Shown here: positions 4,582-64,000 of the stretch, one piece after another
Position numbering within the stretch: the first letter of the stretch is position 1
How the letters are laid out: every line of letters begins with the position of its first letter
Assembly: GCA_039621445.1 (NCBI GenBank)
Contig: CP154954.1
Location: forward strand, 7,141,425 to 7,205,424
Origin: Euglena gracilis
Taxonomy: Eukaryota
DNA: 64,000 nucleotides
Reading direction: 5' to 3'
The notes under the pieces: model-generated
Seen by the model: the letters and a program-made list of their open reading frames with translations, nothing else
What the model was told of the DNA's origin: nothing
The model's database searches: none
Translations under genes and position numbers: made by a program

Positions 4582-7500
4582 ATGCAGTTTGCCGCACCGG
4601 CTCCGGAGGTTGGGCAGGCGGAGTATTTCACGCCGACGCCCGAGGTGTACGTGTACCCGGAAGAGCCACAACCTGAGGTGGGGAAGTGGCCCGAAGGTGT
4701 GCTCCACTCCTGTCCTTCTGTGTTTCACTCTTGTTTATATCAGTGTCCGGTGTATTGACTTTTTTTTTAATTTCACTTTCAGTTTATTTATGGGGTATGA
4801 TGCAGCGACACGATGGTGCAGGAGTGTTCCTGTTTTGAAAGGAATGAAATAGTTTTCAGAATTGTAGAATACCTTGTTCCACACGCCTTTGCATTTGGTT
4901 AGGCTAATTCTCTTCTTGTTGCATTTTTGCAGAAAACCTTTTACGACTCCACAGGGGGCCAGCCAGAAGTACCCCCAACCTCCCGCCCATGGCATTGGTG
5001 GCGGTGGGTACTGTGGACCAGACCAACGTTCGGAGCCAGTCACCAAAAAACATCGCGAGTAAATTGTTGCATGTGCTATTCTCAAAAGGAAATTGACATA
5101 TTTGCGTTTCTCTATATTATTGATAAGAAAACTCATAATCTATTTTCCCGATTACCAATATTTGGTGATTTCAAATGCATTAATACTCTATGTAATTTTC
5201 TCCTTCCCCATCTCCCATTATTTTGTGTTGTTTGTGAGATATTGTTTCAAAAATTTTGCCATTGGTATCCGCTTGATTTAGCGAGATATTATTGATTTCT
5301 CCCTCATTGCTGTTCCCATTTCCCTAATGTCCAGCACCACCCTCCCTAGTTATGCAGGGATTTTTTTTAACAGGTTGGACCCTGGGGGACGGGGCAGGGT
5401 GGGTGGTCTACCGGACAGCCCCCCCCCCCCCCGCCCGCCGAGGGGTTCCCTCCAAGTGCCTTGTGGGTCCCCCGCAAGGTAATGGCCTTTTTGACCTTTT
5501 TCGGGTGCAAAGCGCCAAAATTTTGTCTCCATATTTGACCAAATTTGACAAAAATGTTCCTCCCCGAGGTGGCTCCCTGAGTAGGGGCACCCTGAGTGAT
5601 TTCCAGTGTATCCTAACAATGGGCGGGGGGTTGCTTTGTCCTGCCCTGGGGTAGTTTTTGGTCCTAGACGCCCAACCAACGCTGGCCTGAGGCGGGCGCT
5701 GCCCCGCCTGCTGCTCGTGCCCTTCCTCGCCCTGTTCTTCCTGTGGGTGTTCAACGCCGAGGGGGGCGTCGGGCTCGACGCCTCCAGCCTCTTCGGCCTG
5801 CACGCCGTGCTGATGGTCGTCTTTGTGCTGCCCAGGCCCCCTACCGATGGCTCATGTTGCAACGCGAATGTGCAGCGAATGAGTCTCAAGTGCGACTGCG
5901 TTTTTTTGGAAAATCGTATTGGACAGCATGGTGAAGGGAAGGGGCACGTCACAAAAAGATCGAAAATTGTATCAAAGGTCAAATACTTTCAAGTTTTATG
6001 TGATTTTTTTGGGGTTACGTTAATCAGTTTCTAGCTGAGCCTCACAGACGAAGGATTCGAGAAGCCAAACCGGTCGATTATTATGGAAAAAATATGGGGA
6101 ATTTCAATAATTTTACAATTTTTTTCTATGGCAATTTTTTGTATCCCACCGACTTAAGGATCTTTGCAAGCACATTTTCATTGTGGTATCGTTCTTCAAC
6201 TTCTCTTTGTTCCCCAACATCTTTTTGGATGTTTGGTGGATGATTGGCTGGGGCCTTGTTCCGATCTGCATGCAGGAGGCCCTCCTCGTTTATTCCGTTC
6301 CGCTTTTCGGGCCTCTGCCGGTTCCCCGAGCTGCCTCCAAGTATGCCGCCCCCAACTCGACGTGGCTGTGATGTGGCAACGATGAATGGGAGGCTGGCCA
6401 GTATTGAGGTCGGGGTTGACACAGCCACTCAGAACGTCTTCCGCATTCAAGCTGCAGAAAGGTCGGTTGGAGTGGGACCAAGCTTCTGCGGTTCACTTCG
6501 CTGCGGTTAAATGCCCTTTTTTGATTTTTGGGTTTTTTATTTGGATCTGTCTTAAAATTCATTACAAGTCCCATTCTCAGCTCGACACGGAGGAACTTTT
6601 TTTTCGAGTCTGGGGACCCCCCAAGGGGGTCTAGCCAGTGGCTTCGTTGCAGTGATTCGCAAAATGGCTGGTCAGCGGCCCCTGGGGACCTGAAGCAGGA
6701 GGCTGAGCGGGACAGGCGTTTCTTCTACTGTGGAAATCTACCAAATCTCCAACAGCCTTTCCCTCAGTCTCTTTTCATTTCCTTTTTCGTCAGAAAACCC
6801 CCCGGGCAAGAGGCAGAGAGGCGGAATCATCTGTTTCTCTGCAAAAAGAAAAACACGGAATTTTGGCAAATTGATTGGAATGGCAAATTTACGACAATAG
6901 CATCCTAAAATATTAAAATGAAGTGTCAACAATCCACACGACTTAGAAATAATGTGAATGCCTGTTTTGATGTTTTATAATTTATTTTTTATTTTTTGTT
7001 TAGATTTTGCTTATTTTAGTTTGAAAAATATATGCCCCAAATATTATTTACCCCTGGCCAGAATTTCGCATTCCTAAATATGTACCCCCGGGGGGAGTTT
7101 TGGGGGGAGTTGAGGAAAATGTTTCAAATGGTTTCAACGAGGAAAATATTTCAACAAACAAAATGTTGGAGAATGAAAGGATTTGGCTGCATGCATCATT
7201 GATGGCTGGATGGCTGACCGGATGGATCGATGGTTGGGAGAAAGAGTATAGGGTTGGCAGGCGTAAACAGGAAGGCTGGGCAGTGGCCTCTGGCATTCGT
7301 TTTCCTCCAGGGCTGCCCGGTTCCACACGGTGCTCCTGTGCAGGGCCGTCCACGCCGTCTTCCACCTGGCCGGCCTGGGGTGCGCCATCGGGGGGCTGGT
7401 GGCCATCGTCTCCTACAAGCGCCAGAACGGCGACAACGTCTACCCGAACTACCCGGTGTACACCCCCCACTCCTGGGTGGCCATTGCCTTCCTCGCGTTG

Positions 7501-15977: not shown

Positions 15978-18900
15978 ATGCAGTTTGCCGCACCGGCTTC
16001 GGAGGTTGGGCAGGCGGAGTATTTCACACACCGACGCCCGAGGTGTACGTGTACCCGGAAGAGCCACAACCTGAGGTGGGGAAGTGGCCCGAAGGTGTGC
16101 TCCACTCCCGTCCTTCTGTGTTTCACTCTTGTTTATATCAGTGTCCGGTGTATTGACTTTTTTTTTCTAATTTCACTATCGGTTTATTTATGGGGTATAA
16201 TGCAGTGACACGATGGTGCAGGAGTGTTCCTGTTTTGAAAGGAATGAAATAGTTTTCAGAATTGTAGAATACCTTGTTCCACACGCCTTTGCATTTGGTT
16301 AGGCTAATTCTCTTCTTGTTGCATTTTTGCAGAAAACCTTTTACGACTCCACAGGGGGCCAGCCAGAAGTACCCCCAACCTCCCGACCATGGCATTGGTG
16401 GCGGTGGGTACTGTGGACCAGACCAACGTTCGGTGCCAGTCACCAAAAAACATCGCGAGTAAATTGTGTGGGTCCCCTGCAAAGTAATGGCCTTTTTGAC
16501 TTTTTTCGGTGCCAAAGCGCCAAATATTTGTCTCCATATTTGACCCAATTTGACAAAAATGTTCCTCCCCGAGGGGGGGCTCCCTGAGTTATTTCCAGTG
16601 TATCCCAACAATGGGCGGGGGGTTGCTTTGTCCTGCCCTGGGGTGGTTTTTGGTCTTGGACGCCCAACCAACGCTGGCCTGAGGCGGGCGCTGCCCCGCC
16701 TGCTGCTCGTGCCCTTCCTCGCCCTGTTCTTCATGTGGGTGTTCAACGCCGAGGGGGGCGTCGGGCTCGACGCCTCCAGCCTCTTCGGCCTGCACGCCGT
16801 GCTGATGGTCGTCTTTGTGCTGCCCAGGCCCCCTACCGATGGCTCATGTTGCAACGCGAATGTGCGGCGAATGGGTCTCAAGTGCGACTGCGTTTTTTTG
16901 GAAAATCGTATGGTGAAGGGAAGGGGCGCGTCACAGAACATCGAAAATTGTATCAAAGGTCAAATACTTTCCAAGTTTTATGTGATTTTTTTGGGTTACG
17001 TTAATCAGTTTCTAGCTGAGCCTCACAGACGAAGGATTCGAGAAGCCAAACCGGTCGATTATTATGGGAAAATATCGGGGAATTTCAATAATTTTACCAT
17101 TTTTGTCTATGGCAATTTTTTGTATGTCCTGCACTTTAGAGTTCACGCATAATTCTCCGAAGTGGTTGCCACCGACATAAGAATTTTCGCCAGCATACTT
17201 TTATTGTTGTATCGTTCCTGAACTTTTTTTTGGATGTTTGGTGGATGACTGGCTGGGGCCTTGTTCCGATCTGCATGCAGGAGGCCCTCCTCGTTTATTC
17301 CGTTCCGCTTTTCGGGCCTCTGCCGGTTCCCCGAGCTGCCTCCAAGTATGCCGCCCCCACCTCGACGTGGCTGTGCTGTGGCAACGCTGAATGGGAGGCT
17401 GGCCAGTATTGAGGTCGGGGTTGACACAGGCACTCGGAATGTCTTCCGCATTCAAGCTGCAGCAGGTCGGTTGGAGTGGGACCAAGCTTCTGCGGTTCAC
17501 ATCGCTGCGGTTAAATGCCCTTTTTTGACTTTTTTGGGGTGTTTTTTTTTTTGGAACAGGATCTGTCTGGAAATTCATTACAAGTCCCATTCTCAGCTGG
17601 ACACGGAGGAACTTTTTTTTCGAGTCTGGGGATGCTAAAATATTAAAATGAAGTGTCAACAATCCACACGACTTGGAAATAATGCGAATGCCTGTTTTGA
17701 TGTTATTATAATTTATTTTTTGTTTAGATTTTGCGTATTTTAGTTTGAAAAATATATGCCCCAAATATTAATTACTCCTGGCCATAATTTCGCATTCCTA
17801 AATGTGTACCCCTGGGAAAATTATTTTTGGGGGGAGTTGAGGAAAATGTTTCAAATGGTTTCAACGAGGAAAATATTTCAACAAAGAAAATGTTGGAGAA
17901 TGAAAGGATTTGGCTGCATGCATCATTGATGGCTGGATGGCTGACTGGTTGGATCGATGGTTGGGAGAAAGAGTATAGGGTTGGCAGGCGTAAACAGGAA
18001 GGCTGGGCAGTGGCCTCTGGCATTCGTTTTCCTCCAGGGCTGCCCGGATCCACTCGGTGCTCCCGCGCAGGGCCGTCCACGCCGTCTTCCACCTGGCCGG
18101 CCTGGGGTGCGCCATCGGGGGGCTGGTGGCCATCGTCTCCTACAAGCGCCAGAACGGCGACAACGTCTACCCGAACTACCCGGTGTACACCCCCCACTCC
18201 TGGGTGGCCATTGCCTTCCTCGCGTTGTGGACCATGGATTCATTCAACACCCGTGTGACCCCACCCCCCAGGGGGCAGGGCACACAGGATATCCTCCCAC
18301 CCACCCACCCTTTCGACCTAGTCAGAATCGGCCGAAAGCACTTAAAATTTTCAGGCATGGCGCTTGGCTGGTCCAAAATCTGTCACGAAGTGAATCTGTG
18401 TTGTAGATCCTCCAGCTGCTGGGAGCAATCCACTGCCACGCACGGTGGTGTCAAACGAGGGAGGTTCTGTTCAGTCGAATGCGCGTTTCCTTCAAGATGT
18501 TTGCATTTTTTTTAATTCACAGTTGTATTTTTAATGCTTTTGAGCTTCAACATTTGTCACCAAGGTTTCATGCATTTCCACCAGTGAGATCAATAGTTCT
18601 GCAGTAACTTTAGGTGGCATGCAAAACCACTTTTTGCGTAGTTTTTGCATCCGGTCCAGAGAGAAACTGCATGCATGACTTGATTCACAAACCTACCTAT
18701 CCGAAGTGATTTCACTCTGTTCTGGCCAAAAACCCATTATCAGGAAGTTCATCACCGCTGATCATGGTGCTGTTAGTGAAATTGCTGTGTAGCTTCCCAC
18801 AGCAGCTGCAGTGGCTTGTCGTTGAGGTGCTGTTGTTTTTGTTCTCGTCAAGGATGAGCAGGTCAAGCAACGATGCAGGGCCACCACCCATCTCGTGACG

Positions 18901-48900: not shown

Positions 48901-49993
48901 CCCTCCTGGACAGTCTTCTTGTTAACTCAGAAGACCCCCCCAGGGGGGAGGCAGGGTTGGTGGGTTCAGTTTGGGGGACGCACCCCCCCCCCGGCCCAGG
49001 GGTAGGTCCCGAACCAGAGGCCAGAATAGGTTTCAAAGCGATGCACCAAAATTTTGGCAATTGTCTTTAGACGTCCCGACTTTGGGGGATGCTCCCCAGG
49101 GTCCCACGCCGGGCTGGGGGTGGAGGGACCCCTCCCCCCTGGGTTCTGAAAAGAAGCCCATTCCTGGAGTTTCCAGCGACTGACACAAAATAGCACCCGG
49201 GGGTGTAATGCAAAAAAAAATTTCACGGCTTAAATTGCACCAAGGCCAAGCCTTTTCTTGCCCTCCGCAGGAGATTAATGATTTGATGACCACATTTTTT
49301 GGATTTATTTGATGGTTTTGCGATTCATGAGAATTGTCCCGAAGGCACTTGAAAAGCTTTTGACGACACAGCCAAGTCAATGAATGAGTTCGTTTTCTCT
49401 GAGAGGTTGAAGTGGAAGTATGTGCAGGTTCAAAAAATGTCTGGAAGCATTTTTCGGAGTTCAAAGTTAAATGCCAACTGGGAAAGTTGGAGTAAGGCGT
49501 TATTGCACTCTGGGGGTCGGCTTTTGGGGTGGGCAGTGCTATGACATCAAGGTGCTGGGTCCCCTAAATGGCCATTTCTGTGGGGAATGCACTTGTTTTG
49601 TGTTGTTACTGGGACCCAAAATGGATTCACGCCTGCAGGCACCCATACCTCCGCAGAACTGCGGGCTCCTTGGGATACGGCATGCGTGGTGTATCGGAAC
49701 AGAACAATTTGCACCGGAGACCCAGACCTATCGCCTCCGCATTTCGAAGAGCCCTCTCTTCCTCAGCCGGGAGCCCATCCAGGCCCCTGCCCCCTTCCGC
49801 CCGGCAGCCCTGCCCCAAGGCCGCCGCGGCGCTGGGCCTCGTGTGGGTGGCGGCGCGCTTCCTGTACGGCTGGGGCTACGCCAGCGGCGGGCCGCAGGGG
49901 CGACGGGCGGGGGCTTACCTCTCCGCCCTGGGCTCGTTTCCGCTCATGTTCCTCGCCCTCTACGTCGGAGCCGCCCTGGCGAAGCTTGTGTGA
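45915..49993 (+). CDS. MGST3: MAPEG family microsomal glutathione S-transferase 3-like, 143 aa, 4 exons
   Basis: Exons 45915-46052, 46778-46831, 47164-47226, 49817-49993 give MAVSIPDEYGYVV..ARKKYNVPYPALYA/DREHKEHEKFNSVQRAHQ/NTLESWGP..GLLFP/KAAAALGLVWVAARFLYGWGYASGGPQGRRAG..KLV*, containing the MAPEG FNxxQRAHQNxxE signature. All three introns are non-GT-AG. Confidence 0.93.
46832..47163 (+). other. Nonconventional intron in MGST3-like gene
   Basis: GGCCAGGGC...GCCCTGGACGC: R at +1, CAG +4..6, CTG -8..-6, Y at -1; restores QRAHQ|NTLE. Confidence 0.9.
48039..48643. mobile_element. MITE with ~60-bp TIRs and 3-bp AAT TSD (PIF/Harbinger-like termini)
   Basis: aat|GGAGATGCTTCCGCACCGCGTG... and ...CACGCGGTGCGGAAGCATCCCC|aat; lies within MGST3 intron 3. 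Confidence 0.75.
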
Positions 49994-50210
49994 AGGCTGA
50001 GCACAGGAATTTTTTTCCCACCGTTGGATATTGCAGCGTCCAATTTCATCTATGGGGTCAAGGCTTGTGGCGGTGAATGCAACCTGGGGTAGTTGAATCA
50101 AGCAACGTCTGAAATTTTCAGGCCCCGCAAAGGGGGAGGCTTAAATTGCATCCTTACAACAACCTCAAAAATATTTCGAGATAGTGCCATCCGCCATATC
50201 ACTGTAGTTA

Positions 50211-50426
50211 AACCCCCCCCCCTAATAGCAGCACGGGTGCGCTTATAGTGGACCGCCGCCTCCGGCGGCGGGGGGTGCACTTCTATTTGGACCCTATCTG
50301 CCCGATTTTGGTTGATTTTCTTTAGAAATCCCATCAAAATGGGGGGGGTGCGCTTGTAGCGGGGGGTGCGCTTTTATTTGGACCCTGCGCTTGTAGCGGC
50401 CCCGTGCTTCTATTAGGGGGGGGGTT
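50211..50426. mobile_element. Short MITE-like element with ~26-bp TIRs
   Basis: aaccc..cctaatagcagcacggg vs cccgtgcttctattaggg..ggtt; internal gtgcgctt repeats. Confidence 0.55.
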
Positions 50427-50759
50427 AGTGCCATACACCATACATTTATGCTAAGTGCTATATGCCATATGGCTGTGGTTGTATTTTTGGCATTTTGCAT
50501 AAGGCATTTGTGTGTCAGAAGACTTGCACAGCAAAGGGGAGTTCACAGGGCACACTATATTCAAGGTATTTGCTGTGTATTTTTCACATTTCACATTCAT
50601 GCACGAGGATCTTAAACAAGATCCTCCGACCGTAACCCTCCTGGGACAACCCCAAATATGAACTCCGCCTGTGAAAACAATTCAAAAATGTAGAGCCCCT
50701 TGTTTACCAAATTTAAATGCCAGACAGAAATAGATTTTGAAAAGTATCATTGTCTGGAG

Positions 50760-51049
50760 CATAGATTCATTTAACAGCTGTGTGAGCCCTCCCCCGAGGG
50801 GGTTTTCGAGAGTGGATGGGTGGGTCGGGCCCCGGGACTACCCCGTGGGGTGCACCATGGGTCACCATGGGTTGGTTGCCCGACCAAAAGGCTGGGCCAG
50901 TAAATGTTTTTTAGCGTTTTTGGCTGTATTTGGCTGGATTTGAGTGGATGGGTGGTTGACCCTCTTGGGGGAGGGGGGGGATTGTGGGTGGGTGGGTTTG
51001 GGCCCAGGAAAAAGTACCCCCACCCAGGGAGTCACTGAGTGAATTTATG
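50760..51049. mobile_element. MITE-like element, CATAGATTCA family
   Basis: catagattcattta ... tgagtgaatttatg imperfect TIR; related copies at ~47582-47810 and ~63140-63360. Confidence 0.5.
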
Positions 51050-51368
51050 GTCTGAGGCGAAGGCAAAAGGCAACCTTTTCTGACAAAATAAATTGTTCAG
51101 CTTGAGCCTGTGCCATCCAGGGGGGCATGCAGTTCATCCAAGGGGAAGGGCCCTATAGTTCCACCCAGAAAGAATTCGGAAAGTTGGGGTTATTTCAGGG
51201 GAATAGGGTTAGAGTTAAGGCCAGTCTTCCGGCAATATCTCACTTTTTTGAAAATTTTGAAATGGGGTGGAGTTTGGTGGAACCGCTTTCGGTCAAAGTT
51301 AGGCTGAATTTGGGCCTAATTTCTCCCTTATGAATTATAATAATAATATGAAATTTGGGGGGGTTATT

Positions 51369-51391
51369 CTTAGGCGGCGCGAATTGCCCAA
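51369..51391 (+). repeat. Left terminal inverted repeat (23 bp)
   Basis: CTTAGGCGGCGCGAATTGCCCAA preceded by TTATT. Confidence 0.95.
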
Positions 51392-52728
51392 ATTTTTTGG
51401 CATTTTTTAGGCGTTATGGGTGTGCGGGTTCCCGTGTAAGCCACCCCCCTGAGACGTGACCGAAATTTCTGACACTTGATGCAACCCAGAAATTGTGTGC
51501 GGGTTTCCGTCTGTTTCCACTGTTTTGACATGTGACCCATTTTGGAAATTAATGGTCAAAAAGGGGTGGTTTTGTGAAATACCCCCCCAGCAACCTGGCC
51601 GAAAATGTGAAAACGGAGAAGGGGTCGGAGAACACCTGGCCGTCGGAGCCCCGGCCGTGTCACGACGGAGCCGGACCCCACCTCCGGGAGGGGGGTGACA
51701 TGGGGTGACCTGTGACGGAGAGGCACCCGCGTAAGCAACCCGTGCGTTTTTGGAGGACTCGCGAGTGCCGACGACCAGTGACGGGAGGGGGAAACGAACA
51801 CCACTGCGGAACGGATGTCCTAATTTTTGACAGATGAGGTGTTGGGCGGGAAACCGCACAGAATAGGTGAACCATGTGAGAGGGGGCTAACAGTACGAGA
51901 GGGGGCTGAGAGACAAAGGCTGGTTAAAAGCGAATTTGTGCGGTTATCCGTGCAAAAAACTTACGGGAAACTCCTGGGGACGTTTGGCTGGGAACTGAAC
52001 CTGACATCCAATGGGTCACGTCACCCAAGGCAGCCGTCCTCCCATGCCCCCCTCACCGCCCGCCTGCCAGAAACTGCGATAGCATACGAAGCGCAACGAC
52101 AGAAAGAAGGGAGAGAGGGGGAGGGTGTGTGTGTGCGGATAACCGTGCAGCTTGGTCCTGGTCCTGGAGGGGTCCTTGGTCCTGGGGGGAAGAGAGAGAG
52201 ACGAAGTCTCTGTGGGCGGTCCAGACGGAAAAGAGAGACAAACGGAGGGGACGAACGGACAGCCGAATGGGTGGTCCAGGTCCAGGGCACACGGGGCGTG
52301 ATCTCAGGGAGGGGTATGTGTCAGAGAGGGATTCACACTCCATACAAAGGGTTGGTGGGACACCGGCCACGGAATGGGAGACCAGAATGTGTGCCCTGGC
52401 CCTCACACGGCGGTGGGGGCGTCCGGTGGGTCCCAGGTGAGAGGGGTGATGGAGTGGTCCCAGGGGGTTGAGGTCCCGTCGAAAGGTGAAAGGCATTTGG
52501 GCAGTCCCGGGGACAGTGGGTGTGGGGAGGGTGTGTGACACAAAAAAAAAAAAAGGTGACGGGCGGTCCCAGGTTCAGAAGCATCGGGCGGTCCACACAG
52601 GAGGGGCAGACAGAGCTGCTCAGCCGGCCGCCCACGGCCGTCCACTCGGTGGCGCTGTCGAGGATGGGGATGGCGGCGCAGCCGCCCCGCCGCCCGCCCG
52701 GCCCGCCCCCGCCGGCCCGCGCTGCTGC

Positions 52729-55700
52729 TCACACGTTGAGCAGCTCCTCCAGCGCCCCGGCCGGCGTGGGCTTCTTCTTCGGCCGACCCTCCCCCCTTGG
52801 ACTGGATATGTGTGAGAGGTGGATTACAGGAAGGAGGGGTGTGCGCGTGCAACGAGTCAGTAAGCTGTGTGCGGTTTCCCGTGCAATTTGCAAGCAGAAT
52901 AGCAATGATGAAGAGAGGGTATCAGATCACAAGAGTTTGCAAGTCAGTGTGAATGCAAAACCACCTGATCCCCCAAGGAAAAATAAAACAGCGTGGTAGA
53001 TTGTGTGCGGGTTTCCGTGCAACACACACATCATTCTGTACGTGTGCGGTGCGTGCGGTTTCCCGTGTGCAAAGCCCACCACACGTGGCTGCAAACTCAC
53101 GTGGCTGAAAGAGCAGAGAATGGGAGGACGCAAACAGCTGGTTCTGAAGGGGGGACAGTGTCGGGGGCACTCGCGGCACGATCTCCTCAATCTCGTCCTC
53201 CGGGTCACCGGCGGCGGTCTCAGTCGGCGGCGGGGTGCGGGCCGTGCGCCTGCGGCCCGTCACCGGGGTCTCCGGCGCCGACGGCTCCTGCGCCGCTGCT
53301 GGCGGTGCGGCCGCGCCCTTCCGCAGCCCGGAGGGGGTGGAGGCCCCCTTGCGGCCCGCCGCCGCCGCGCCGCCGCTGGCCGACGGCTGCTTGGCCGGCG
53401 TCACCGGGGCCTCAGCCTCCTTCGCGGCAGGGGCCCTCTCCTTTCCCTTCTCCTTCCCCTTCGCGGCAGGGGCCTTCTCCTTCTCCTTCTCCTTCCCCTT
53501 GGCGGGGGTCTCCTTCTTGCCCCGCCCCTTGGTTGACGGCGGGGGCGAGGGCTCCCGGCCCTTCTTCTCCGGCTCCTTCTTCTTTGGCCGGGGGGGCATG
53601 TCCTCCTCTTCCTTCTCCCCCTTCTCCTCCTCCTCCTCCAGCCCGCCCCGGCCGGAGACGTCCAGCGGCTCGTGGTGGGCGATGCGGTGGTGGACGTTGA
53701 TGGCCGCAGGGGCCACCACCCGGGTGGGATGGAAAATGGGGAAACCAGTCATAGCAGAAGCCAAGCACACCTCCCCACGGGAATCCGCACGCGTGCAATG
53801 TGTGCGGGAAACCGCGTACACGTTGTCCACCACGTTCTGATGCTGCAATAATGACCCATGCGCACAGAGTTGATAAGGGCAAACGTCCCCCCCCCCTCGT
53901 CTGGCCTGGACCGGGGTGGTGCCCTGATCCCACAGGATGGCCGGCTTCCCGTCGGCCATTTTGATCTCGCGCTGCAGCTGGTCCACCCGCAGCTGCATCG
54001 CCTCGTCCGCCTCCTCCAGGAGGTCGGGGTCCCCCCAGATCACGCCGATGGGGACCTGCAGCCGGGTGGCGAGGTCCGCCGGGAGGGCGGCGTGGCGGGT
54101 GACCGCCAGCACCCAGTCGTGGGCCTCCACGTGCAGCCGCGCCAGCAGCCACCACGCCACCTCCACCGGCAGGGTGGGCGGCCCCTCCCCCGCAGAGCTG
54201 TGTCTCAGTTTCAGGCGGGAGGGATGGGGAGTGCGGGGCGAAAAGAGAATTCACAAAAAGGAATTCACACTGTGGGACTGAATGTCATTCTTTCATCAGA
54301 AGAAATGGAATAACCCTACACGAGAAGTGCACGGAAAACCGTCTGAATTGTACCTGGACTGACATTCATTTTGATGAACAGAATGGTACCAATATCTATA
54401 AACTGACCAATGGTGTCACTGTGATTTTGTTTTTTGTTTGTTCGGTGTGAACAAAGCCCTGACCCTGTCCCACGAGGGTGATCTGCCGCGGCACCTGCGG
54501 GGGAAGATGAAGGTCTTTTTTGGTCGACACCTGTGGACCACCGGTAGTGGAACAGTGATTTTCTGAGTCACAGCATGGGCCTTAAGAAACATTCGTGTGC
54601 ACGGACAGTATCCCGTGTGCACGGATGTGTATCAGTCCTGAAACTCGTGGGATTCCCGTGCACTCCACAAAGTTGTGCGGATTCCCGTGTATCCCAAAAA
54701 AAGAGAACAGTCTGTTGGTTGAAAAAAAAAACGAAAAGGAGGATGTACACACCCGAAAGTCCGTCCTGCTGCTGAAGAGGGCGGTCACGGTGGTGACATT
54801 GAAGAGGTAGGTGCGGTCCACGTTGGACTTCACCGGCCGGTGCAGTGTGACGTCCACACGACGCATCTCGTCGGGGACGTCCATGCCCTTCTGCAGCGTC
54901 TGCTGCAGGGCCCCGATGGCGAACGCCCGCCCCGTGGCCACGAACGGGACCCCGCGGCTCCACAGTCTCAGGAGCTCAGGATGGACGTCGGCGTCGCTCA
55001 GCCTGTCCGGGACCTCCACCACCACCGCGTCGACGTTCAGCTCCATGATCTCCCGCGGCATCGCCGCGGTGGGGTGGAGGGGGACCACGTGCGCCAGGCG
55101 GGACGGCTCGGGACTCTCCCCACGCTCCGCCGCTTCCGCCCTTCTTCGCCCCCGGGTGGACCGGCTACCCGCCCACGCTCCCCCTCCCCAGACGTGGGCT
55201 GACTGGGGGACCCCTCCGCCTCCTCCCGGCTGCTGCCGGCCGCCGCTGTGGCCGCCCCGCGCCGACCGCCGCCACCGCTGAGGTCCAGGGTGCAGAAGCG
55301 CCCCCCCGTACCGCACCGTGGGCTCGGCGAGCGGCTGCGCCAGCCGCGCCCGCAGGGGGGCGTAGCGCTCAGTCCCCCACAGGGGGGAGCGGAGGACCGC
55401 CTCCCGCGGTGGCCGTCCTCAGGACAACCCCGAACCTCAGACATTACAGGAGAATCATGAGCCAGTACACAAAAACGAAACAGTTGGACTCCGTAACATT
55501 CTAATGTGACTTGAGATATTTCAGGCGGGTTCCCGTGTAAAACAACCATGTGCAACTAACCAAAGGGAAAGGGAAAAAGTGCACACACACGTCCTGGGTA
55601 GTCCTGCGCACGGGTGCTGGGCCGACCAGCGCCAGTTGGTACCGGTGAGCGGCACCTTGATGTCCGCGCTGACCATGCTCTGCTCCAGGCTGGGCACCAT

Positions 55701-57829
55701 GGACAGGGTACCTGAGCACGAGAACGGTGACATCAGCAAAGAGTCCCAATACTACACACACTTCCATGTGCAAGAGTCTTTGCACGGAAACCCGCCTGAA
55801 AATGACAACCTTGAGATTTGCACGGAAACCCGCCCGAAAATGACAACCTTGAGAAAACGTGTGGACACAGAGTGCGGAAGACAGCGCAGAGTAGACATAC
55901 GGCGGGTCGGGTGGACGTGGTGAAGGTCCGGGTGCATCAGCAGCCACGTCCACGTGCGGCGGCGGATCAGGGACCCCACCACCGCCTTGACAGCGGAGTG
56001 CCATTCCTCCCCCATCACATTCCACCCCAGCGTGCGTTGTGTAGTGTGCGGTTTACCGCGTACTACATCTGTATCCACTCAAACAGTAAAACTGGTTCAA
56101 CTGTCCACGTAGGATCATACTTTCCTTGTGTGCGTGCGTGTGTGTGTCTGTGTGTGTGTGTGCAGGCGGAGTTCCAACAGACACAGTGAAATGGATATCC
56201 GACCCAGCCGCACCGTCGTCGCCTTCGCCGCCTCGTCCAGCATGTCCCTCGTCAGGGCGACGTAGTCCTGCGGGTCGTACAGCTGCTCGATCGCCTTGAA
56301 CGCGTACGGGGACAGTGCCGCCGCCACCCCCGTCGTGGGGCGCGCCTCCAGCGCCCGCACCGCCTCCACCACCGGGCGCCCGCTGTGCAGCAGCCACTCC
56401 GCCAGCGGCTGCATCGACTTCACCCAGTTGTCCTGCACAGAGGAGGTGAGGCAGAGTGAAGCGGGGGGGGGGCCTTAAGAGGGGGGGGGGAGTGAGCGAT
56501 GTGTATGTGATAGCTGGCTCTGCTCCCGATGCGTGTGCGGTCTGGAATCTCAAAGGACAGCGTGCGCGCACTCTCCTTCTGAAAAGAAAAAAAAAGATAG
56601 GAAGCAGGCCGTCTCAGCGGGAATCCGTGCATTGCATCAAATAGAAAAACGGCGCCCACGGAAATCCGCGCACACACCATCTTGCCGTGGGACGCCTCCG
56701 TGCACCCCGTCTTCACGTACACCCGCTTCAGCAGCTCCGTCCGGTTCACCGTCAGGCGGGCGGCGGTCCCCGCCTCGCCGTCCGGCACCGCCCCCGGCCG
56801 CTCCCGCTCCACCTCCCGCTCCAGCCACTCCACCCGCTGGCTGAGGGACATCTCCCTCACCGTCCCGTCCCGGGCTTGCATGCTCCCCGCCACGCGCTGC
56901 CTCTCCTCGAGGCTGGCTGACCCCAGCACCGTGTGGCAGTTGAACCACTCGGTCCACTGCGGCGCCGGCCGCGCGTCGGCCACCGCCGCGTCCGCCACCT
57001 GGGTGGCCGCCAGGAAGCAGTGCTGCTCGCTCAGGATGACGAACTTCCCCGTCGCTGTGACAACAGGGAAGACAGCAGTGCAATTGAGATTTGTCCAGGT
57101 GCACGGATTCCCGCCTGGATCCACACAATCCCCCCCCCTTCTCCCCCCCCCCAAAAAAAACCAGTACAAACGGGGTACATTTCATTATTCAGTCGTTTGG
57201 AAAGCATCCGCCTTTTACAACATCCATGAATACAGACAGACTGGCCTACGTGCTGATAGGCACAGACACGCAAACGAAAAACACACACCCTGCTCCGGCC
57301 ACACCACGAAGCTCAGGGCCCCCACCAGCGGGTTCTCCGTGAACGCCTTGACGAGGGAGTCGACGTGGGCCTTTTCGACCCGCCGCACCTGCCCTCGCGT
57401 GAGGGTCTCGTCCAGCACCAGCACGTCGAGGCGCGGAGGCTGTCTGGCTCTCCAGGGTTTCAGCTGAAAGTTCTGAACAGACAGCAGCACAGGATGTCTG
57501 ATCCACGCGTATGCCAAACACAACTCTCAGCGGTTTGCACGGAAACCCGCACAGCTCTAGAAACCAAAGGAGGTGAATGACACTGAAATGAACGGAGTGA
57601 GTGTCGTCCAAAAAAGGAGTGACTTCTCCTGCACTTTCCAAAACAACCCAGGAATGAGGAACCATCAAACACGCTTGCACGCTTGAACGGTAAAACAGGA
57701 CTGCTTCCACAGACGGCAACCATACAAGTCAGCTCCAGACCCCCTCCGGACACGGGCCAGCGGGGTCGGGGTCTTCGACACCAGCTCCGTCGCCGAGCGG
57801 GTGGGCGCCGTGGGCTTCCGGGCTGCCAT
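52729..57829 (-). CDS. Transposon accessory protein: ParB/Srx-like N-terminal domain + degenerate N6/N4 DNA-methyltransferase-like segment + K/E/P/A-rich tail (possibly decaying)
   Basis: About 11 exons, most with GT-AG boundaries: 57829-~57741 (MAARKPT), ~57464-57290 (TRGQVRRVEKAHVDSLVKAFTENP..FVVWP), 57055-~56678 (GKFVILSEQHCFLAA), 56432-~56203, ~56025-55918, ~55735-55592, ~55420-54752, ~54535-54465, ~54195-53906 (PTLPVEVAWWLLARLHVEAHDWVLAV..LATRLQVPIGVIWGDPDLLEEA), ~53720-53172, ~52800-52729. Confidence 0.6.
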
Positions 57830-58076
57830 CAGAGGTCTAAAAAAACGAGACAGCATGAAAACACCCAAAATGAAGGAAATTCAGATCAGAAACAGTCCTC
57901 ACGGAAACACTTTTGTTAGTATAAATAAGCAGAAAATCTGGGACAGTGAGTTTGATCAAAAAATAATTGTCAGTAAAGGAAACACAACAGTGACCACTCA
58001 CCAACAGCCTCCGTAGAGCACCCCCTTTTGCCTGGGTGGAGAATGCTTTTGCACGGAAACCCGCCCGGCACCCCCG

Positions 58077-59960
58077 TCATGTTCTGAAATGATCTCTCAC
58101 CCTCGCTCTGAAGGCCTCCAGCTGACTCCCTGATGTACAGGAAGGTTCATAACCACGTACAAAGACCAGGGTCCGGCAGGGGCACACCGCCGCTGGGGAC
58201 AGACTGAGGTCCTCATCCGAGGAGGAGGACCCGGACGAGGTCGGGCGGCTGCTCAGCAGCTCCCCCAGACTGCCGAGGCCGTCCGAGGCCGCCGGGGAGA
58301 CGTACCCCTCGGACAGCGTGCCCGGCGGCTCGTACAGCGACTCCGCTGTACTGGGCGGCTCGTACAGGCTCTCCGCCTCGGGCAGCTCCAGCGCCGGCCA
58401 TCCCGGTTGAACCGGCGGCTGCACCACCGCCATGGCCGTGGAGGAACTGGGCTCCTCCGGGGTGAACCGCACGCGGCTTTCCGCCGGGGACTCCTCGGCA
58501 GCCCTCATCACCCCCGGAGGTGCAGGTTCCGCTGCTGCGCGGGTTTCCGCACGGGCCGCCGCCTCTGCGCGGGTTTCCGCCTGCCCGCCGGTCGCCGCTT
58601 CGACGTCCCCCGGGGGCGTGGGGCTGCGGCGCCGCCGCTGCCGCTGGTGGAGGAAGTTGTCCATCGCCCGCTGGCGACGGGCGAACTCCTGGGGGTCCAC
58701 CGGCCCGACGTTCTCCCGCATCCAGACCAGGATGTCGGGGGTCAGCGCCCGGCCGCTCACCAGCGTCAGGAGGGAGGTCCGCATCAGGGCCTCCAGCGCC
58801 CGGACGTCCACGATCTCCGGCAGGATGGGCGGGGACCCCCACCGGGGGAACTCCACCTCGGAGGCGTCCACCCAGGCGACCCGCGTGGCGTCCACCCGGC
58901 GGGGGAAGGGGCGGCCCTCGGGGTGGTCCGCCAGCTGGCGCACCCGACGGGCCATCTCGGCGACCAGCCCCAGCCGCAGGGAACCCCGGCTGGCGTGCGG
59001 CGCCCCCGACGGCGGCGGCAGGCCGAGGAACAGCTGCAGGGTGCCCCGGAAGTCCGTGACGTACGGCGACCGACGGCAGGCACCCGACAGGCGCGACAGC
59101 ATCGCCTCGCCGGCCTCCTCCACGAAGACGCACCCGGGCAGGCGGGACATCCACGGCTGCCAGGTCAGCAGGGCCAGGGAGATGGTCCGCAGGGCCAGGT
59201 GCACTGCCGCACCTTGAAGCCGAGGTGGAGGAGGGCCGGCAGGAAGAAGGTGAGGAGGCGGTGCAGCCCCAGGAGCAGCTGCGGGCCGTACGCGTCGGCC
59301 GCAGTGGGGGCGGAGACGTGCACGCGCTGGCTCTCCTCCCGGAGACGATCCTCCAGGTAGCGTCAGAGTGACAAATGGGCTTCCGAAGTGTCTTCACCCA
59401 CCAGAAGAAGAGAGAGGCTGACGAGATACAAGTCGGCCTGTGTGACCTATCACCAGAGTCCTTTACGCGGGTTTCCGCACAAAGCGGACAGACTGTGCCG
59501 GACAGATGGGAGAGATCTGACACCGACTGACACACGAGATGACTGTGCGGATAACCGCACAAACATTGGCCTGAAGTACCAGAGGAAACCTGGAAGCAGC
59601 CAGCCTGGTCAGGAGCAGTGGTCACCCTGGCTGTGGCAGCACGTCGGCCCGGGTCAACAGGAGGCTGGCGAACAGCTTCTCCATGTACAGCACCTTCCGG
59701 TGCGACCGCAGGGACGTCGTCAGCTGCCGGCTGCCCCCGGCGCCAACCGGCACCTCCAGGTGGGCCAGCACCGGGAAGAACGCCCGGTACACCACCGTCA
59801 CCGTGTGCTTGTAGGCATGCCAGATGCCGTACAGCAGGGGGACGTTGGCGAGGTGCTCCCCCATCCGGAAGCGCAGCGCCGGGGCCGAGTAGAGGAGGCG
59901 GAGGATGCGGTAGTGGATGTTCTCATCCACGAGGAGGGGCAGCTGGCGGCCCGACCGCCC
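58077..59960 (-). pseudogene. DDE-type transposase-like gene, frameshifted; N-terminus unresolved
   Basis: QLPLLVDENIHYRILRLLY..PLLYGIWHAYKH (59960-59633), LEDRLREE..LHRLLTFFLPALLHLGFKVRQCTW (59358-~59195), then a frame change to LRTISLALLTWQPWMSRLPGCVFVEEAGEAMLSRL... and a low-complexity tail. Lies inside the TIR/TSD-bounded element. Confidence 0.6.
59359..59632 (-). other. Nonconventional intron inside the transposase-like gene
   Basis: Minus strand AGCCAGGGTGAC...GTCACTCTGACGCT: A at +1, CAG +4..6, CTG -8..-6, T at -1; in-frame join DVLP-H-LEDRL. Confidence 0.85.
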
Positions 59961-61871
59961 CTGTCAGCTTCCGCTTCGTTTAGTTTAGCCTCCCCCACAC
60001 CAACCACAGAAGAGAAGAAAAGAAACCACACAAAACGCTCACGCGCCGTGTACATACACGGCGCGAGAGCGGATATCCGTGCACGCACTCGTCCACAGGG
60101 AAAAAGTAGGCAAGTGACCGCACCGGCCGGGGAACCAGTGGCGTTGCCCGCTGGGGTGGGCGGTCCCAGGGAGCTCGGCCACAAGAGGCCGTTACAGCCA
60201 CTTGCCCAACATCTCTCTCTAGAGATCGCACTTGGACTGTATAACTTTCGCGAAAGCACTGTTGGTGGTCACGCCGGCGGTTACACCAAATGAAGGCCTC
60301 GCGATCCAGATCGATCCTGGACAAAAGCATAGGGGAGGAGGGGCGGACATTCGTGCAGTGCAATGAGCCTTACGCCTTACGCACTGGTCCGTTCTTGTAC
60401 GCGGAAACCCGCACACATCGTCGCCGTTGACGTGTAACCACACCACACAGCCTCTGTCACCCTCACCAGACCTCAACGCGCACAACCGAGGAAACCGTTG
60501 CCCTACGCATTCCGATCGCGAGGAAAACCGGTCCCCTACGCAGTTGTGTACCACCAAACGTCCAAAACGTGAAACACAAACACCCAGGTTCAATTTTCCT
60601 AACCAGTCGGTCGGGGGAGTCCGGGACGGGCGTCGTCGCCCCGGCTGCGTTGGTCCGCAAACGCCGCAACCGCACCCCCGTTGGGGAGGTCTGGGCAACC
60701 TGCCCCGGCGGTGCGGAGAGGTCAAAGGACCACCCAGGCTCCTCACTGTCTTTTTATCCACGCAGGTGGTACATTCGGAATGTGTTGCACGAATTCCCGC
60801 ACAAGACATCCCGTTGGCTTTTCAATATCACACAGACCGTTGTGCATCTGTTTGGTAACCCATACCCCTCTGCCCCCACTAATAACAACAACACTGCGTC
60901 GCGTTTCGCGACCAGTCATCACCGCAGTCGCGGAGAGACGCACCGTAACGTCATTTACGTGCCGTTTCGTTCCGTTCAGGCCGGGGAGTTACACAGGCAG
61001 GCTCGCCGGGGACAGGACCGCCCCCTCTTTCAGGGGGATGGGGCAGCCAACTGTTGGCCCACCACCACACCCGGCGGACACACACACACACACACACCAG
61101 ATCCCCCCGTCACCGGCCACGGCTGGGCCACCGTCCCGGTGACGGCCAGGGCACGAGATGTGTCGGGGTGTGGTGCGACAGACGGACGCTGCCCCCCGGG
61201 TCCACCCCGGCCTCCCCACCATTTTTTTATCTACACCTTAAGTTAATGCATCTGTCCTCTTACGTATTCCGGCCCACACACCCATCACAACGTTTTGCTG
61301 TGTTATGCGGATTCCCGCCTAACACCAAATGCCTTCGTCCTGTCCTTCGGAGGTTACGCGGGTTACCGCCTGGACGTCATAAATACAACTGCGCTCTCTT
61401 TACGCGGTAATCCGCCCAAACCACACATCACGGTTTTCCTTCACATTGCACCAGCCACACAACACCCCCCTGTATAACACATCGTTGTGGGGAGGCCATG
61501 CGGACTCATGGCCCGCTCGAGGTGGGCCTGCAGGACCAGGCAGCGCTCCAGCACCTGCCGCGCCGTGTCCCCCTTCTCCTGTTGTTCACCTCACCTCACA
61601 CACTGTGTGGAAACAGACGTACCACCAATATACACCCACGTATCACACACGTTACAATACAGTACTTTTCTGGTACCTATAACAGGGGTGTCAATACACC
61701 TGTTTTTACGTACCTCTGCGTCATGTAGTGTACGGTGTGCGGAATACCGCACAGAACTACTTTCATAAAATTTGGGCCCAAAGCCGCCACACACCCTGTT
61801 TAACTCAAAATTTCGTGCCCTTTTAGGTGTTTTTAAAACATCCAAAAAACGTCAAAAAACGCAAAAATGGC

Positions 61872-61894
61872 TTGGGCAATTCGCGCCGCCTAAG
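61872..61894 (-). repeat. Right terminal inverted repeat (23 bp)
   Basis: TTGGGCAATTCGCGCCGCCTAAG followed by TTATT. Confidence 0.95.
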
Positions 61895-62254
61895 TTATTG
61901 TTGATTGCTGCCCCTCAATTGTTTGCCGTGTCAAGCTGAAACTTGCCTTTGTCCCACAATATCAAACCATGGTTTCAGCCCTCCCAGGAAGTTCTCACAC
62001 TCTCCGGGGAGTAGCCCCTTCTCCATGCCGCCCAGTTGCGACTTTTTTTTTTCATTTTTACACGTGCGGCAGTTGGGTGGGAGGTATTTCAAGAGTCCCT
62101 TTTTTAAGTTTCTTTTTTCTTTTTTTCTTTTGAACACACCGCAGGGAATCAGTCTGGTCTGATACGTTCTATTTGTTTTCAGTTTGGTATGAACGTTCTC
62201 AGATACTGAAAGCCTTCAAATGCAATTCCAGTGCCATCTTGCACTAAACTCATT

Positions 62255-62432
62255 TGGCTGTCGTGTCGGCGAGAAGAAAGTTCACAAACATCTTCTGTGG
62301 GGGGGTGACAAATTGGGCAGCACGGAGGGGGGTGACAATTTCCCGGGGTGACAAATTGGCCGGCACAGCTAGGGGTGGCAATTGCCCGGGGGCGTCAATT
62401 GCCCGGGGGCGTCAATTGCCCGGGGGGGGGGG
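62255..62432 (-). mobile_element. Partial reverse-strand copy of the GGGCAATTG MITE-like family
   Basis: Reverse complement resembles 2190-2350 (cacagaagatgt..gccgaca; gggcaattgacgcccccgggcaattg). Confidence 0.6.
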
Positions 62433-64000
62433 TACTGAATGTTCTCAGATATTGAAAGCCTCCCCAGGATCCCCCTGGGTTGATAGATTGAGTGCTTAGA
62501 CCGCCTCCTCCCAGGGTTGGACTCAAAAATTCTTGGTACGGCCCGCCACACAAGTGATCAGGCTGACCGTTGGCAGTCTATTTGTGTTTGCGGTGAAGAT
62601 GGTTCGTCTCTGTTTTCGCCTCTACGCTTGCGTCTGGGTCCTGCGATGCGATCTGAAACGCAGCCGGCCCATACAGCGTTAAAATCAACTGATTGGGATT
62701 CCTTGCTGGCCAGACCGGTCAATCTGGAAGGCAGGTCCTGATTTGAGGAGAACCCCCAGGGGAGGGTTTCGTTCAAGTCAAGGTGTCCATGGTTTGGGGT
62801 CACGGTGTGTCCCTCTTTTGCTTGATCAGAGAGAGAGTCAGGACTCCCCCATCCGTAGGGGTTCCGGACCAGGGGGGTCCCTTCTTTCTCCCCCCCCTTT
62901 TTTTTTGACAACCGCCCCTTGAACGCCGCCCTAAGCAGCCAACAGCGGTCCAGGGGTTGAACTCGAAAGACAAGATGTCGAAAAATATATCTTTTGACGT
63001 CTGGGTGGATGGGCGATGGTCCAAGGATGCCAGATGTGACTTCTTCCCCGAAGTTGACCCATTTTTGTTGAAATTTATATGACCCTTTTTTCGGTGAACT
63101 TTCCCTTGAATGTGCTCAGAGTTGTTTTTTTTTTATACTCCCTGGGGTTGGGTGTGGCATGTGTCAGTCCAGCTCGGCTGAAGGCCTTTGGTATGATTCT
63201 GGGTGGTTTTGGGTGGGTGGGTGGGTGGGTGGGTGGGGGTAGACCCCCCAGAGGGTTTTGGGTGGGTGGGTTTTTGAAGAAAAAAAGTTGGGTGGTGGGT
63301 TTTTGTGGCCCAGGAAAAGGGCCAAAAACCCTTTTTGGCCCGAGGTCATTAAATGAATCTCTCATCTTAACCTCAAAATACTCCTACTGCGGTCCGTAAT
63401 GGATGGGGTTAGGGTTATTGCCACAATTACAGTCTTTATTTATTGTGACAGAACTGCAAATTTTGAGGAAACACGTTGTTTTATATCAATTTTGCAGATT
63501 TTCAAATTTGTGTGTTTCTTATGCCTTCATTTTGAAATCTAAAAATGTCTTTTCCCCCATATAACATTTTCTGAATGAACAGTGAGTTGAAGTGTAACAA
63601 AATAGCAGGATCAAAGTTTCATTTTAACGGTCGGAGTGATTCATTTTTCGCCATGCACGAACAAACACAGCTTCCATAATTTGTCTCCTTTCTCCCAGGA
63701 TCCGTATCCCCCTCAATGTCCGTCTCCATCCCAAAAGATTTCGGCTATGTGTTGCTGGTGATCGGATTGTCATGGTTCCTGGGGATGCCACTGCTTGAGT
63801 CTGTTTAGAAAAAACCCTCCTAGCCCTTCTTTTTGTGCAAACAAGAAAAGGTTCGATATAAAGATGTCCATCCTTGACCAAGGTGTCCAGACCACCCCCA
63901 CTCGCCTGTCACTGTCTTGTCAGGGTTTCTTTTTTTTTTAACTCAGAAGACCCCCCCACCCAGCGGGGGTAGGTGGGTCCAGAACCGGACCCCATAGAGG

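Follow-up and report, generated by a model that had tools for sequence, protein, structure and literature searches.

A 64,000-nucleotide stretch of the Euglena gracilis genome (contig CP154954.1 of assembly GCA_039621445.1, positions 7,141,425 to 7,205,424 of the forward strand), hereafter the window, contains a discrete insert of 10,526 bp at 51369-61894. Terminal inverted repeats (TIRs) with arms of 47 nt, 77% complementary and perfect over their outer 23 bases, bound this insert, and TTATT is found on both flanks; the insert was therefore identified as a 10,526-bp TIR transposon with a 5-bp target-site duplication. The element, a TIR cut-and-paste DNA transposon, is 60-69% GC (62% over its whole length) compared to approximately 49% for the surrounding DNA. 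It carries 2 genes on the minus strand, an accessory gene with a marginal ParB/Srx-type signal (gene 1) and a member of a putative transposase family (gene 2). Copies of a short palindrome, RCGG-N4-CCGY (RCGGNNNNCCGY), are spread through its non-coding DNA and are the subject of this report. All observations of this motif were made on the one transposon copy in the window, which is defective. The TIR 23-mer had no match in the viral contigs searched.

Enrichment and sequence of the palindrome

There were 41 matches to RCGG-N4-CCGY in the 64,000 bases, compared to a mean of 3.32 and a maximum of 8 in shuffles of the window, and 37 of the 41 were inside the element, between 51424 and 61750. When the element alone was used as background (1000 dinucleotide-preserving shuffles of the 10,526 bp), the 37 observed matches compared to 1.90 ± 1.35 with a maximum of 7. 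Matches with an A/T-rich spacer (WWWW, GWWW or WWWC) numbered 29 versus 0.10 ± 0.32 (maximum of 2) in the same shuffles. In the host flanks, 53,474 bases in all, 4 matches were found when any spacer was allowed, and an A/T-rich spacer was present in none of them. Spacer lengths of 0 to 12 were compared, and N4 alone was enriched, with 37 copies versus 1 to 8 for each of the other lengths. The motif is a real and highly non-random feature. The enrichment claimed in the original prediction was thereby reproduced against a composition-matched background, and every position at which it had placed a copy does hold one. It had also raised the alternative of a general intronic signal of host genes, which is contradicted by the lack of A/T-spacer copies in the 53.5 kb of flanking DNA.

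The spacer had been described as 4 nt throughout and mostly A/T-rich. The length was upheld by the exclusive enrichment of N4, and the composition by 31 of the 37 matches, whose spacers are WWWW, GWWW, WWWC or GWWC. The remaining 6 depart from it; their spacers are G/C-rich, they lack the flanking bases described below and they lie in GC-rich exons, so that they look like chance hits. The 31 good copies left after removal of these 6 were used for placement and class counts.

The full conserved unit is an 18-mer, T-R-Y-R-CGG-(W-rich N4)-CCG-Y-R-Y-A. In the form TRYRCGG-N4-CCGYRYA it was found 13 times without mismatch and 5 times with one mismatch in the element, and nowhere in the rest of the window. 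The most frequent forms among 58 half-sites were TGTGCGG (16), TGCACGG (12) and TACGCGG (6), with a second class ending in GGCGG (9). At the outer YR pair of these half-sites, TG was present in 20, CA in 16 and CG in 9, which is the spectrum that CpG decay would be expected to give. Both inner CpGs were intact in the 31 copies, and there was one candidate decayed copy. Because the inner CpGs are intact while the outer YR pair varies, the CGG...CCG core is the constrained part of the unit. The arms are conserved in sequence, with no covariation. Similarity between copies stops at 18-23 bp except in 2 local tandem duplications of 38 bp and 30 bp, through each of which one motif copy was gained. 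With a shared unit of only 18-23 bp, the motif is not part of a larger repeat.

Inverted CGG..CCG triplets at a fixed spacing are the grammar of some dimeric zinc-cluster factors. The copies could therefore be sites for a host factor, either a dimeric reader of CGG triplets or the methylation machinery, and could serve as enhancers or as targets or shields of CpG methylation. The retention of the inner CpGs, the 2 to 4 CpGs in each copy and the CpG observed/expected ratio of 0.64 in host DNA versus 0.86 in the element are consistent with such a role. However, the flanks held no A/T-spacer copy, so no use of the site by the host is visible here. A scan of all 6 frames of the element for Zn2Cys6, C2H2, BED and THAP patterns gave matches in non-coding frames only, and the real reading frames contain no zinc-cluster pattern. 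We consider a host reader of the site very unlikely.

The strand composition of the element, examined over 49369-63869, is mirrored. At the left end (51369-52869), the plus strand is richer in TG than in CA and in G than in C, and the reverse holds from approximately 55.4 kb onward to the right end (skew of -0.1 to -0.4 for TG against CA). As both genes are on one strand, this flip is not explained by transcription alone; a speculative cause would be gap repair with copying inward from the two ends.

Placement and folding of the copies

For placement, exons were taken as GC-rich open blocks and the predicted introns as the low-GC gaps between them; these bounds are approximate and were set after the data had been seen. 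Of the 31 copies, 29 were in the 5,853 non-coding bases, a density of 4.95 per kb compared to 0.43 per kb in coding DNA. At least one copy was present in each of the 10 gaps of gene 1, in the intergenic spacer and in the one clear intron of gene 2. When 29 copies were placed at random in the non-coding bases, all 10 gaps of gene 1 were filled with p of approximately 0.008, and all 12 compartments with p = 0.003. Occupancy of the gaps is more even than random. The claim that every one of 10 predicted introns carries a copy therefore stands for the gaps as such, although homologue alignments support the boundaries of introns 2, 3 and 4 of gene 1 only. Copies were likewise found where they had been reported outside gene 1, in both subterminal regions, the intergenic gap and the non-coding DNA of gene 2. 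Within 780 bp of the left end there are 5 copies, and within 590 bp of the right end there are 4. Coding sequence, namely the low-complexity, variable C-terminal part of gene 2, contains 2 good copies, which encode a repeated AETRA peptide, and a questionable third at 58473. The copies and the other features of the element are given in Table 1.

Table 1. Features of the element by position in the window. Motif classes are those read on the plus strand: F, GCGG..CCGT; R, ACGG..CCGC; S1, GCGG..CCGC; S2, ACGG..CCGT.
Feature	Class	Positions	Strand	Remarks
Left target-site duplication		51364-51368	.	TTATT; same 5 bases at 61895-61899
Left TIR		51369-51415	+	23 perfect bases; 47 nt at 77%
Right TIR		61848-61894	-	
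Right target-site duplication		61895-61899	.	TTATT
Motif copy	F	51421-51438		left subterminal; 5 bases inside TIR
Motif copy	F	51496-51513		left subterminal
Motif copy	S1	51843-51860		left subterminal
Motif copy	F	51937-51954		left subterminal
Motif copy	F	52132-52149		left subterminal
Motif copy	F	52868-52885		gene 1 gap 10
Motif copy	F	53004-53021		gene 1 gap 10
Motif copy	F	53052-53069		gene 1 gap 10
Motif copy	R	53774-53791		gene 1 gap 9
Motif copy	S1	53801-53818		gene 1 gap 9
Motif copy	S2	54328-54345		gene 1 gap 8
Motif copy	F	54674-54691		gene 1 gap 7; degenerate relatives at ~54600-54665
Motif copy	F	55522-55539		gene 1 gap 6; TIR-tip-like half CAGGCGG
Motif copy	R	55781-55798		gene 1 gap 5; unit 1 of 38-bp tandem duplication
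Motif copy	R	55819-55836		gene 1 gap 5; unit 2 of 38-bp tandem duplication
Motif copy	S1	56045-56062		gene 1 gap 4; intronic under homologue-supported model
Motif copy	F	56614-56631		gene 1 intron 3
Motif copy	R	56655-56672		gene 1 intron 3; begins 5 bases past donor
Motif copy	R	57100-57117		gene 1 intron 2
Motif copy	R	57536-57553		gene 1 gap 1
Motif copy	R	58050-58067		spacer, gene 2 stop to gene 1 start
Motif copy	S1	58536-58553		gene 2 variable C-terminal coding region; 30-bp tandem duplication
Motif copy	S1	58566-58583		gene 2 coding region; unit 2 of 30-bp duplication
Motif copy	S1	59464-59481		gene 2 intron
Motif copy	S1	59544-59561		gene 2 intron; perfect palindrome
Motif copy	F	60066-60083		non-coding stretch in place of gene 2 5' half
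Motif copy	S1	60398-60415		non-coding stretch in place of gene 2 5' half
One-mismatch copy		60786-60803		CGA for CGG
Motif copy	S1	61304-61321		right half CCGCCTA equals right TIR tip
Motif copy	S1	61355-61372		right subterminal
Motif copy	S1	61401-61418		right subterminal
Motif copy	S1	61736-61753		right subterminal; perfect palindrome
Gene 1, accessory gene		52729-57830	-	marginal ParB/Srx-type N-terminal domain; ~11 exons; approximate bounds; degenerate
Gene 1 exon 2		57289-57497	-	GQVRRVEKAHVDSLV...; start of putative ParB-like domain
Gene 1 exon 3		56678-57054	-	family SGQHR box is SEQHC here
Gene 1 exon 4		56214-56432	-	
Gene 1 exon 5		55901-56006	-	
Gene 2 last exon		58080-59210	-	family residues ~493-760
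Gene 2 segment, other frame		59180-59362	-	family residues ~401-460; deletion joint ~59190
Gene 2 exon		59640-59963	-	LLVDENIHYR and GIWHAYKH; family residues ~295-398
Gene 2 displaced fragment		61516-61575	-	family residues ~465-482

The copies could have arisen as a functionless by-product, spread by local duplication, gene conversion or an introner-like mobile unit and surviving wherever coding constraint is absent. The 2 tandem duplications that carry motif copies and the avoidance of constrained coding sequence agree with this origin. However, the shared unit of 18-23 bp comes without TIRs, target-site duplications or longer similarity between introns, which does not match introns derived from introners or miniature inverted-repeat transposable elements. 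In addition, the positions of the introns flanking exon 3 of gene 1 recur in homologues of 30-50% identity, whose open reading frames (ORFs) show the same "M-V-C" intron read-through; these introns are therefore older than this transposon family. The intact inner CpGs of the 31 copies, set against a single decayed candidate and a freely varying outer pair, and the even occupancy of all gaps also argue against mere survival. A by-product without function is improbable, on a par with the host-factor explanation.

By class, 11 copies were F, 7 were R and 12 were S1; both GCGG..CCGT and ACGG..CCGC are present on the plus strand, as had been reported. The classes are regionally segregated, with F dominating 51421-55539, R dominating 55781-58067 and S1 dominating 58536-61753. 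This segregation bears on the possibility that the palindrome acts as an RNA or single-strand hairpin with a 7-bp stem and a 4-base loop, either in pre-mRNA (for splicing, export or small-RNA evasion) or in a single-stranded DNA intermediate. All copies could fall in minus-strand transcripts, in introns or ends resembling untranslated regions, and some would form stems of -8 to -11 kcal/mol. Owing to this segregation, G-T wobbles can keep the stem paired on whichever strand is read inward from the nearer element end. However, the mean minimum free energy of the 18-mers did not differ between strands (-5.4 kcal/mol for sense and -5.5 kcal/mol for antisense; Wilcoxon p = 0.78), and full pairing was found for 5 of 31 copies in sense RNA compared to 11 of 31 in antisense. 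The left-arm copies had stems of just 3 bp in sense RNA. The arms are conserved rather than covarying, and Rfam gave no family match, its single hit (E = 0.5) being at an unrelated position. A hairpin function is the least probable of the explanations considered here and would be surprising.

A double-stranded DNA site is favored over a sense-RNA hairpin. The original prediction had reached the same preference from the presence of both orientation variants on one strand. The preference holds, since the arms are conserved and neither strand folds better, but the argument from the variants is weaker than had been stated because the variants are regionally segregated and not randomly mixed.

Genes of the element and possible readers of the site

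Exon 3 of gene 1 retrieved 77 homologues with phmmer, mostly exon-sized ORFs, with the consensus YYILSGQHRxxAA. Most of these homologues (P0026-P0102) begin and end at the 2 intron positions of the window gene. Because exon-sized homologue ORFs end at the same intron positions, the intron-exon structure of gene 1 appears to be old and widely conserved. One hit, P0028, was rejected as spurious; it is a 4988-residue mucin that matched on a W..W repeat. No phase-consistent GT-AG model was obtained for the whole of gene 1, and the reading phases disagree at 3 or more junctions. The SGQHR box of the family is SEQHC in the window (57034-57048), the R-to-C change being of the CpG-decay type. The altered box and the phase problems suggest that this copy of gene 1 has become a pseudogene. 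A 39-bp tandem duplication (KGKEKEKEKAPAA repeats) lies at 53419-53496, in the lysine/glutamate-rich linker of the gene, and shows local duplication to be active in the element outside the motif too.

The ParB-like character that the original prediction gave to gene 1 finds some support. The family profile was aligned by hhalign to a metagenomic protein that matches DUF6551 (E = 1.2e-32) and GmrSD_N (E = 5e-4), with a score of 94% and E = 1.2e-7 over 54 columns across the box, YYILSGQHR in the consensus. This bridging protein is the product of a prokaryote-type DUF6551 gene on an AT-rich contig that is without the motif and is the only contig found by the gene 1 profile. The PHROG family "ParB-like partition protein" was matched by 2 of 7 homologues scanned (E = 9e-4 and 1.4e-3). 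Below threshold, Pfam matches were ParB_N in 1 of 71 members (E = 0.042) and DUF1015 in 4 of 71 (E = 0.034). We take DUF6551, GmrSD_N and the other weakly matching families to belong to the ParB/Srx superfamily. The N-terminus of the gene 1 family may thus be of ParB/Srx type, a marginal assignment.

A comparison of the gene 1 profile with Protein Data Bank (PDB) sequences gave nothing relevant. The later exons showed no sign of a second domain, and Pfam searches of the gene 1 exon ORFs at E up to 1 gave no hit, whether to a 2-oxoglutarate (2OG) oxygenase, a methyltransferase or any other family. DPPY-like and GTT-like strings had pointed to a methyltransferase, for which there was no Pfam support, and Atlas gave 0.80 for exon 7 with no family; this assignment was dropped. 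DUF3723, known from a Starship accessory gene, was an Atlas lead for homologue P0049 (0.96, 183 of 256 features), and hmmscan was negative for it in 71 of 71 members. No paper linking DUF3723 with ParB was found, and this assignment is retained as no more than a lead.

For gene 2, the last exon retrieved 4 homologues and the profile 25; the full-length proteins have 750-811 residues. None of the 4 full-length homologues had a Pfam hit at E up to 0.1, including to models of the hAT, P, Transib, Plavaka or KDZ superfamilies, and hmmsearch of PDB sequences with the 25-sequence profile found no transposase. The profile also had no match in metagenome or viral contigs. An AlphaFold (AF2) model of homologue P0002, made from the 25-sequence alignment, had a predicted local distance difference test score (pLDDT) of 78.9 and a predicted template modeling score (pTM) of 0.71. 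VIA-align placed it closest to the P-element transposase (Z = 10.2 over 288 residues, root-mean-square deviation of 5.5) and Hermes (Z = 9.8), at approximately 285 aligned residues, followed by ISCth4 (8.0), Transib (7.5) and RAG1 (6.8); unrelated rows were at 4.0 or lower. Foldseek matches to the family model were weak (E = 1e-2). The model supports assignment of the family to the DDE transposases of the P/hAT/Transib structural class, with an RNase H-like core and an all-helical insertion. D181 (WMDNW), D327 (LVDEN) and E530/E531 (FVEE) are invariant in all 4 full-length homologues, and from their order and spacing we infer that they form the catalytic acidic triad.

The window copy of gene 2 aligned by tblastn to family residues ~295-760 only; the first ~295 residues, and with them the first D, are absent. 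Near 59190 the reading frame breaks with the loss of approximately 35 codons, 20 of which are found as a displaced piece 2.3 kb upstream, close to the right end. No trace of the N-terminal 295 codons is left in the 1.5 kb from 59964 to 61515, a stretch with 6 motif copies. With the N-terminus and first D gone, the frame broken and a fragment displaced, the copy is non-autonomous. The earlier designation of this gene as a transposase therefore fits the family by its predicted fold, but the gene in this copy is truncated and rearranged. A conserved acidic tail, ESLYEPPGS..SEGYVSP, is invariant in the 4 full-length homologues (P0001-P0004) and is duplicated in the window copy by a 30-bp repeat at 58324/58354 (region 58250-58380). 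From its sequence, the tail looks like a short linear interaction motif.

The fixed 4-base A/T spacer, restriction to the element, density of approximately 5 per kb in non-coding DNA, even spread and retained core lead us to read the motif as an array of protein sites. The reading that we prefer, with a probability of roughly 0.45, is that the copies constitute an array, specific to the family, of sites on double-stranded DNA for a protein that the element itself encodes, most likely the ParB/Srx-like product of gene 1, used for self-recognition. The gene 1 protein would bind putative sites spread over the whole element, and once bound it could act on this element alone, by marking, coating or modifying it. 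Such self-marking would resemble the action of VANC on VANDAL21, or that proposed for the ParB-like PAG3 of red algae, both described below. One possible effect would be to counter silencing at these CpG-bearing sites. As the working transposase is lost and the ParB box is mutated, this copy could be acted on in trans only. Binding, the identity of the binder and the effect of binding are what we infer from the analysis as a whole.

Several results weigh against the preferred reading. Its sole material is a single, defective copy. The commonest form of the motif, TGTGCGG..CCGTGCA, is not a perfect palindrome, which a strictly symmetric dimer would not predict, and the copies are mostly singletons in mixed orientation, not tandem arrays as in VANDAL21 and Plavaka. 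F and R copies differ in frequency across the geometric midpoint of the element (Fisher p = 0.047; p = 0.013 with a cut chosen post hoc), so that the orientation classes are roughly mirrored, and in 6 of the 31 copies one half is similar to the TIR tip (CCGCCT or AGGCGG), with identity to the tip over 7 bases in the copy at 61304. For gene 1, no Pfam or NCBIfam model was matched at threshold. Its structural model had no ParB fold match; Foldseek gave nothing at E up to 0.9, and the best VIA match (Z = 5.1) covered a helical hairpin only. The model is poor at the N-terminus because the modelled sequence includes intron read-through. Helices follow the box in the model, but no helix-turn-helix family was matched and gene 1 yielded no recognizable DNA-binding domain. 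To our knowledge, DUF6551 and GmrSD_N proteins are not classical parS binders. Lastly, peptides that the motif would encode were sought in read-through tails. Frame c held none versus 1.0 expected in 76 gene 1 homologues and 4 versus 1.4 expected in 25 gene 2 homologues; the peptides are not enriched, in a test that has low power and presumes that other families have the same motif.

The mirrored classes and the tip-like halves speak more for a role of the transposase or of the element ends, and they would be accounted for if the copies were binding sites of the transposase. In that case, the helical N-terminal region of the gene 2 protein would read the half-site, and internal copies would aid loading or synapsis, in the manner of extended subterminal repeats of hAT, P and CACTA elements. 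The clusters near both ends would then be its subterminal sites, and the TIR tip, CTTAGGCGG, contains the half-site-like AGGCGG. P-element and Hermes transposases, to which the predicted gene 2 fold is most similar, bind subterminal sites. However, the subterminal arrays known to us end within a few hundred bases of the element ends, whereas approximately 20 copies lie deeper than the subterminal zone; transposase sites would leave the spread of at least one copy to each predicted intron unexplained. Searches of the N-terminus of the gene 2 family turned up no DNA-binding domain, and AGGCGG at the tip, a 6-mer in a GC-rich TIR, could be a chance occurrence. We therefore rank transposase sites second, behind sites for the accessory protein, and consider them rather unlikely.

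Sites for the gene 1 protein could also be part of something broader, a widespread and unclassified eukaryotic family of cut-and-paste transposons with a parS-like system, in which a ParB/Srx protein would nucleate on the 18-bp palindrome, cover the element and shield or rewrite its chromatin. Selection would then maintain at least one palindrome in each intron and in all remaining non-coding gaps. This broader proposal is a good deal more doubtful than the array itself, and we consider it unlikely. If it were true, a prokaryote-style module of a site plus a spreading protein would provide transposon self-recognition in a eukaryotic nucleus.

Related systems and flanking DNA

The bacterial pairs ParB-parS, KorB-OB and Noc-NBS each have a palindromic site of 13-16 bp, present in several dispersed copies per replicon and read by a dimer of the ParB family. 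The motif described here differs from these sites in that its sequence is unrelated, the nearest relatives of gene 1 are in the DGQHR branch (DUF6551/GmrSD_N) and the setting is a transposon of a eukaryotic nucleus. Subterminal repeats bound by transposase are known from Ac/Ds (AAACGG), En/Spm (a 12-bp TnpA motif) and Hermes. Like those, the element has short CpG-bearing repeats in both subterminal regions of a TIR element and a transposase with a predicted hAT/P-type fold. Their arrays are limited to the ends, in contrast to the element here, in which two thirds of the copies are internal, with at least one in each predicted intron.

Three transposon systems were closer. Of the cases shown by experiment, VANDAL21, a Mutator-like element of Arabidopsis, is the nearest; in it, the protein VANC21 binds a 9-bp motif, YAGTATTAY, found in the introns, intergenic and terminal non-coding parts of the element and rare elsewhere (Hosaka et al. 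2017, PMC5735166), and VANC targets grow by tandem duplication (PMC5735166). The element in the window is similar in having a short family-specific motif in its non-coding parts and copies gained by tandem duplication. In contrast, the VANDAL21 motif is 9 bp long, non-palindromic, in one orientation and mostly tandem, whereas here, apart from 2 two-unit duplications, the copies stand singly and in both orientations. VANC is not related to ParB, and its binding and hypomethylation are experimental, whereas here they are proposed from sequence. Self-recognition and self-modification are known from very few transposons. VANDAL/VANC is given as the only experimentally shown case (bioRxiv 10.1101/2025.02.11.637652).

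The nearest parallel in structure comes from the same preprint, which describes PAG3 of red-algal Plavaka transposons, a protein with a ParB-like N-terminus and a 2OG oxygenase encoded adjacent to inverted-repeat arrays, and its authors propose that it binds and modifies its own element (bioRxiv 10.1101/2025.02.11.637652). Both cases combine a ParB-like accessory gene, putatively so here, with inverted-repeat units in one giant DNA transposon. However, the PAG3 repeats are tandem arrays beside the gene, and the sites described here are single and dispersed through every predicted intron. Unlike PAG3, gene 1 has no detected 2OG oxygenase or other second domain, and the copy is degenerate. Sola1-1_Ec32 of Ectocarpus has an accessory gene with ParB-like and N4C/N6A methyltransferase domains, whose product is proposed to bind and modify its own element (PMC12477816). 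Sola1-1_Ec32 is likewise a large DNA transposon of a eukaryote whose accessory protein is ParB-like; the methyltransferase domain of that protein has no counterpart found in gene 1.

ParB-like accessory genes in algal transposons are a recent proposal that came without defined target sites. The element in the window offers a sharply defined 18-bp candidate site, present in 31 copies and absent from the host DNA on either side, which makes the idea directly testable. The candidate site adjoins a gene of apparent ParB/Srx type and a putative transposase gene whose family is outside Pfam and has homologues in many public data sets. At least one site per predicted intron amounts to an unusual constraint on intron sequence. 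A transposon with a ParB-like accessory gene and likely target repeats is of a recently recognized kind; the dispersed, intron-by-intron placement and the unclassified P/hAT-like transposase family are unusual. We found no description of an intron-by-intron transposon motif in the literature, where supplements of the cited papers may hold algal repeat sequences.

Microsatellites of the (CA)n and (TA/TATG)n types are numerous in the host part of the window, which lacks long clean ORFs. A host repeat, GGGGGCGTCAATTGCCC, is present at 2205, 2494, 13632, 62388 and 62405 and differs from the TIR core of the element at 3 of 17 bases. Matches resembling it numbered 7, including the 2 TIRs, compared to 0.28 expected. 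Two of the copies are in tandem 500 bp to the right of the element, within a GTGACAAATTGG-like repeat block at 62300-62430. By its sequence, this repeat may represent another TIR family. Separately, the minus-strand translations of 5350-5988 and 16138-16959 are long and almost identical (KKTQSHLR...LGYTGN), which marks the pair as a dispersed host repeat.

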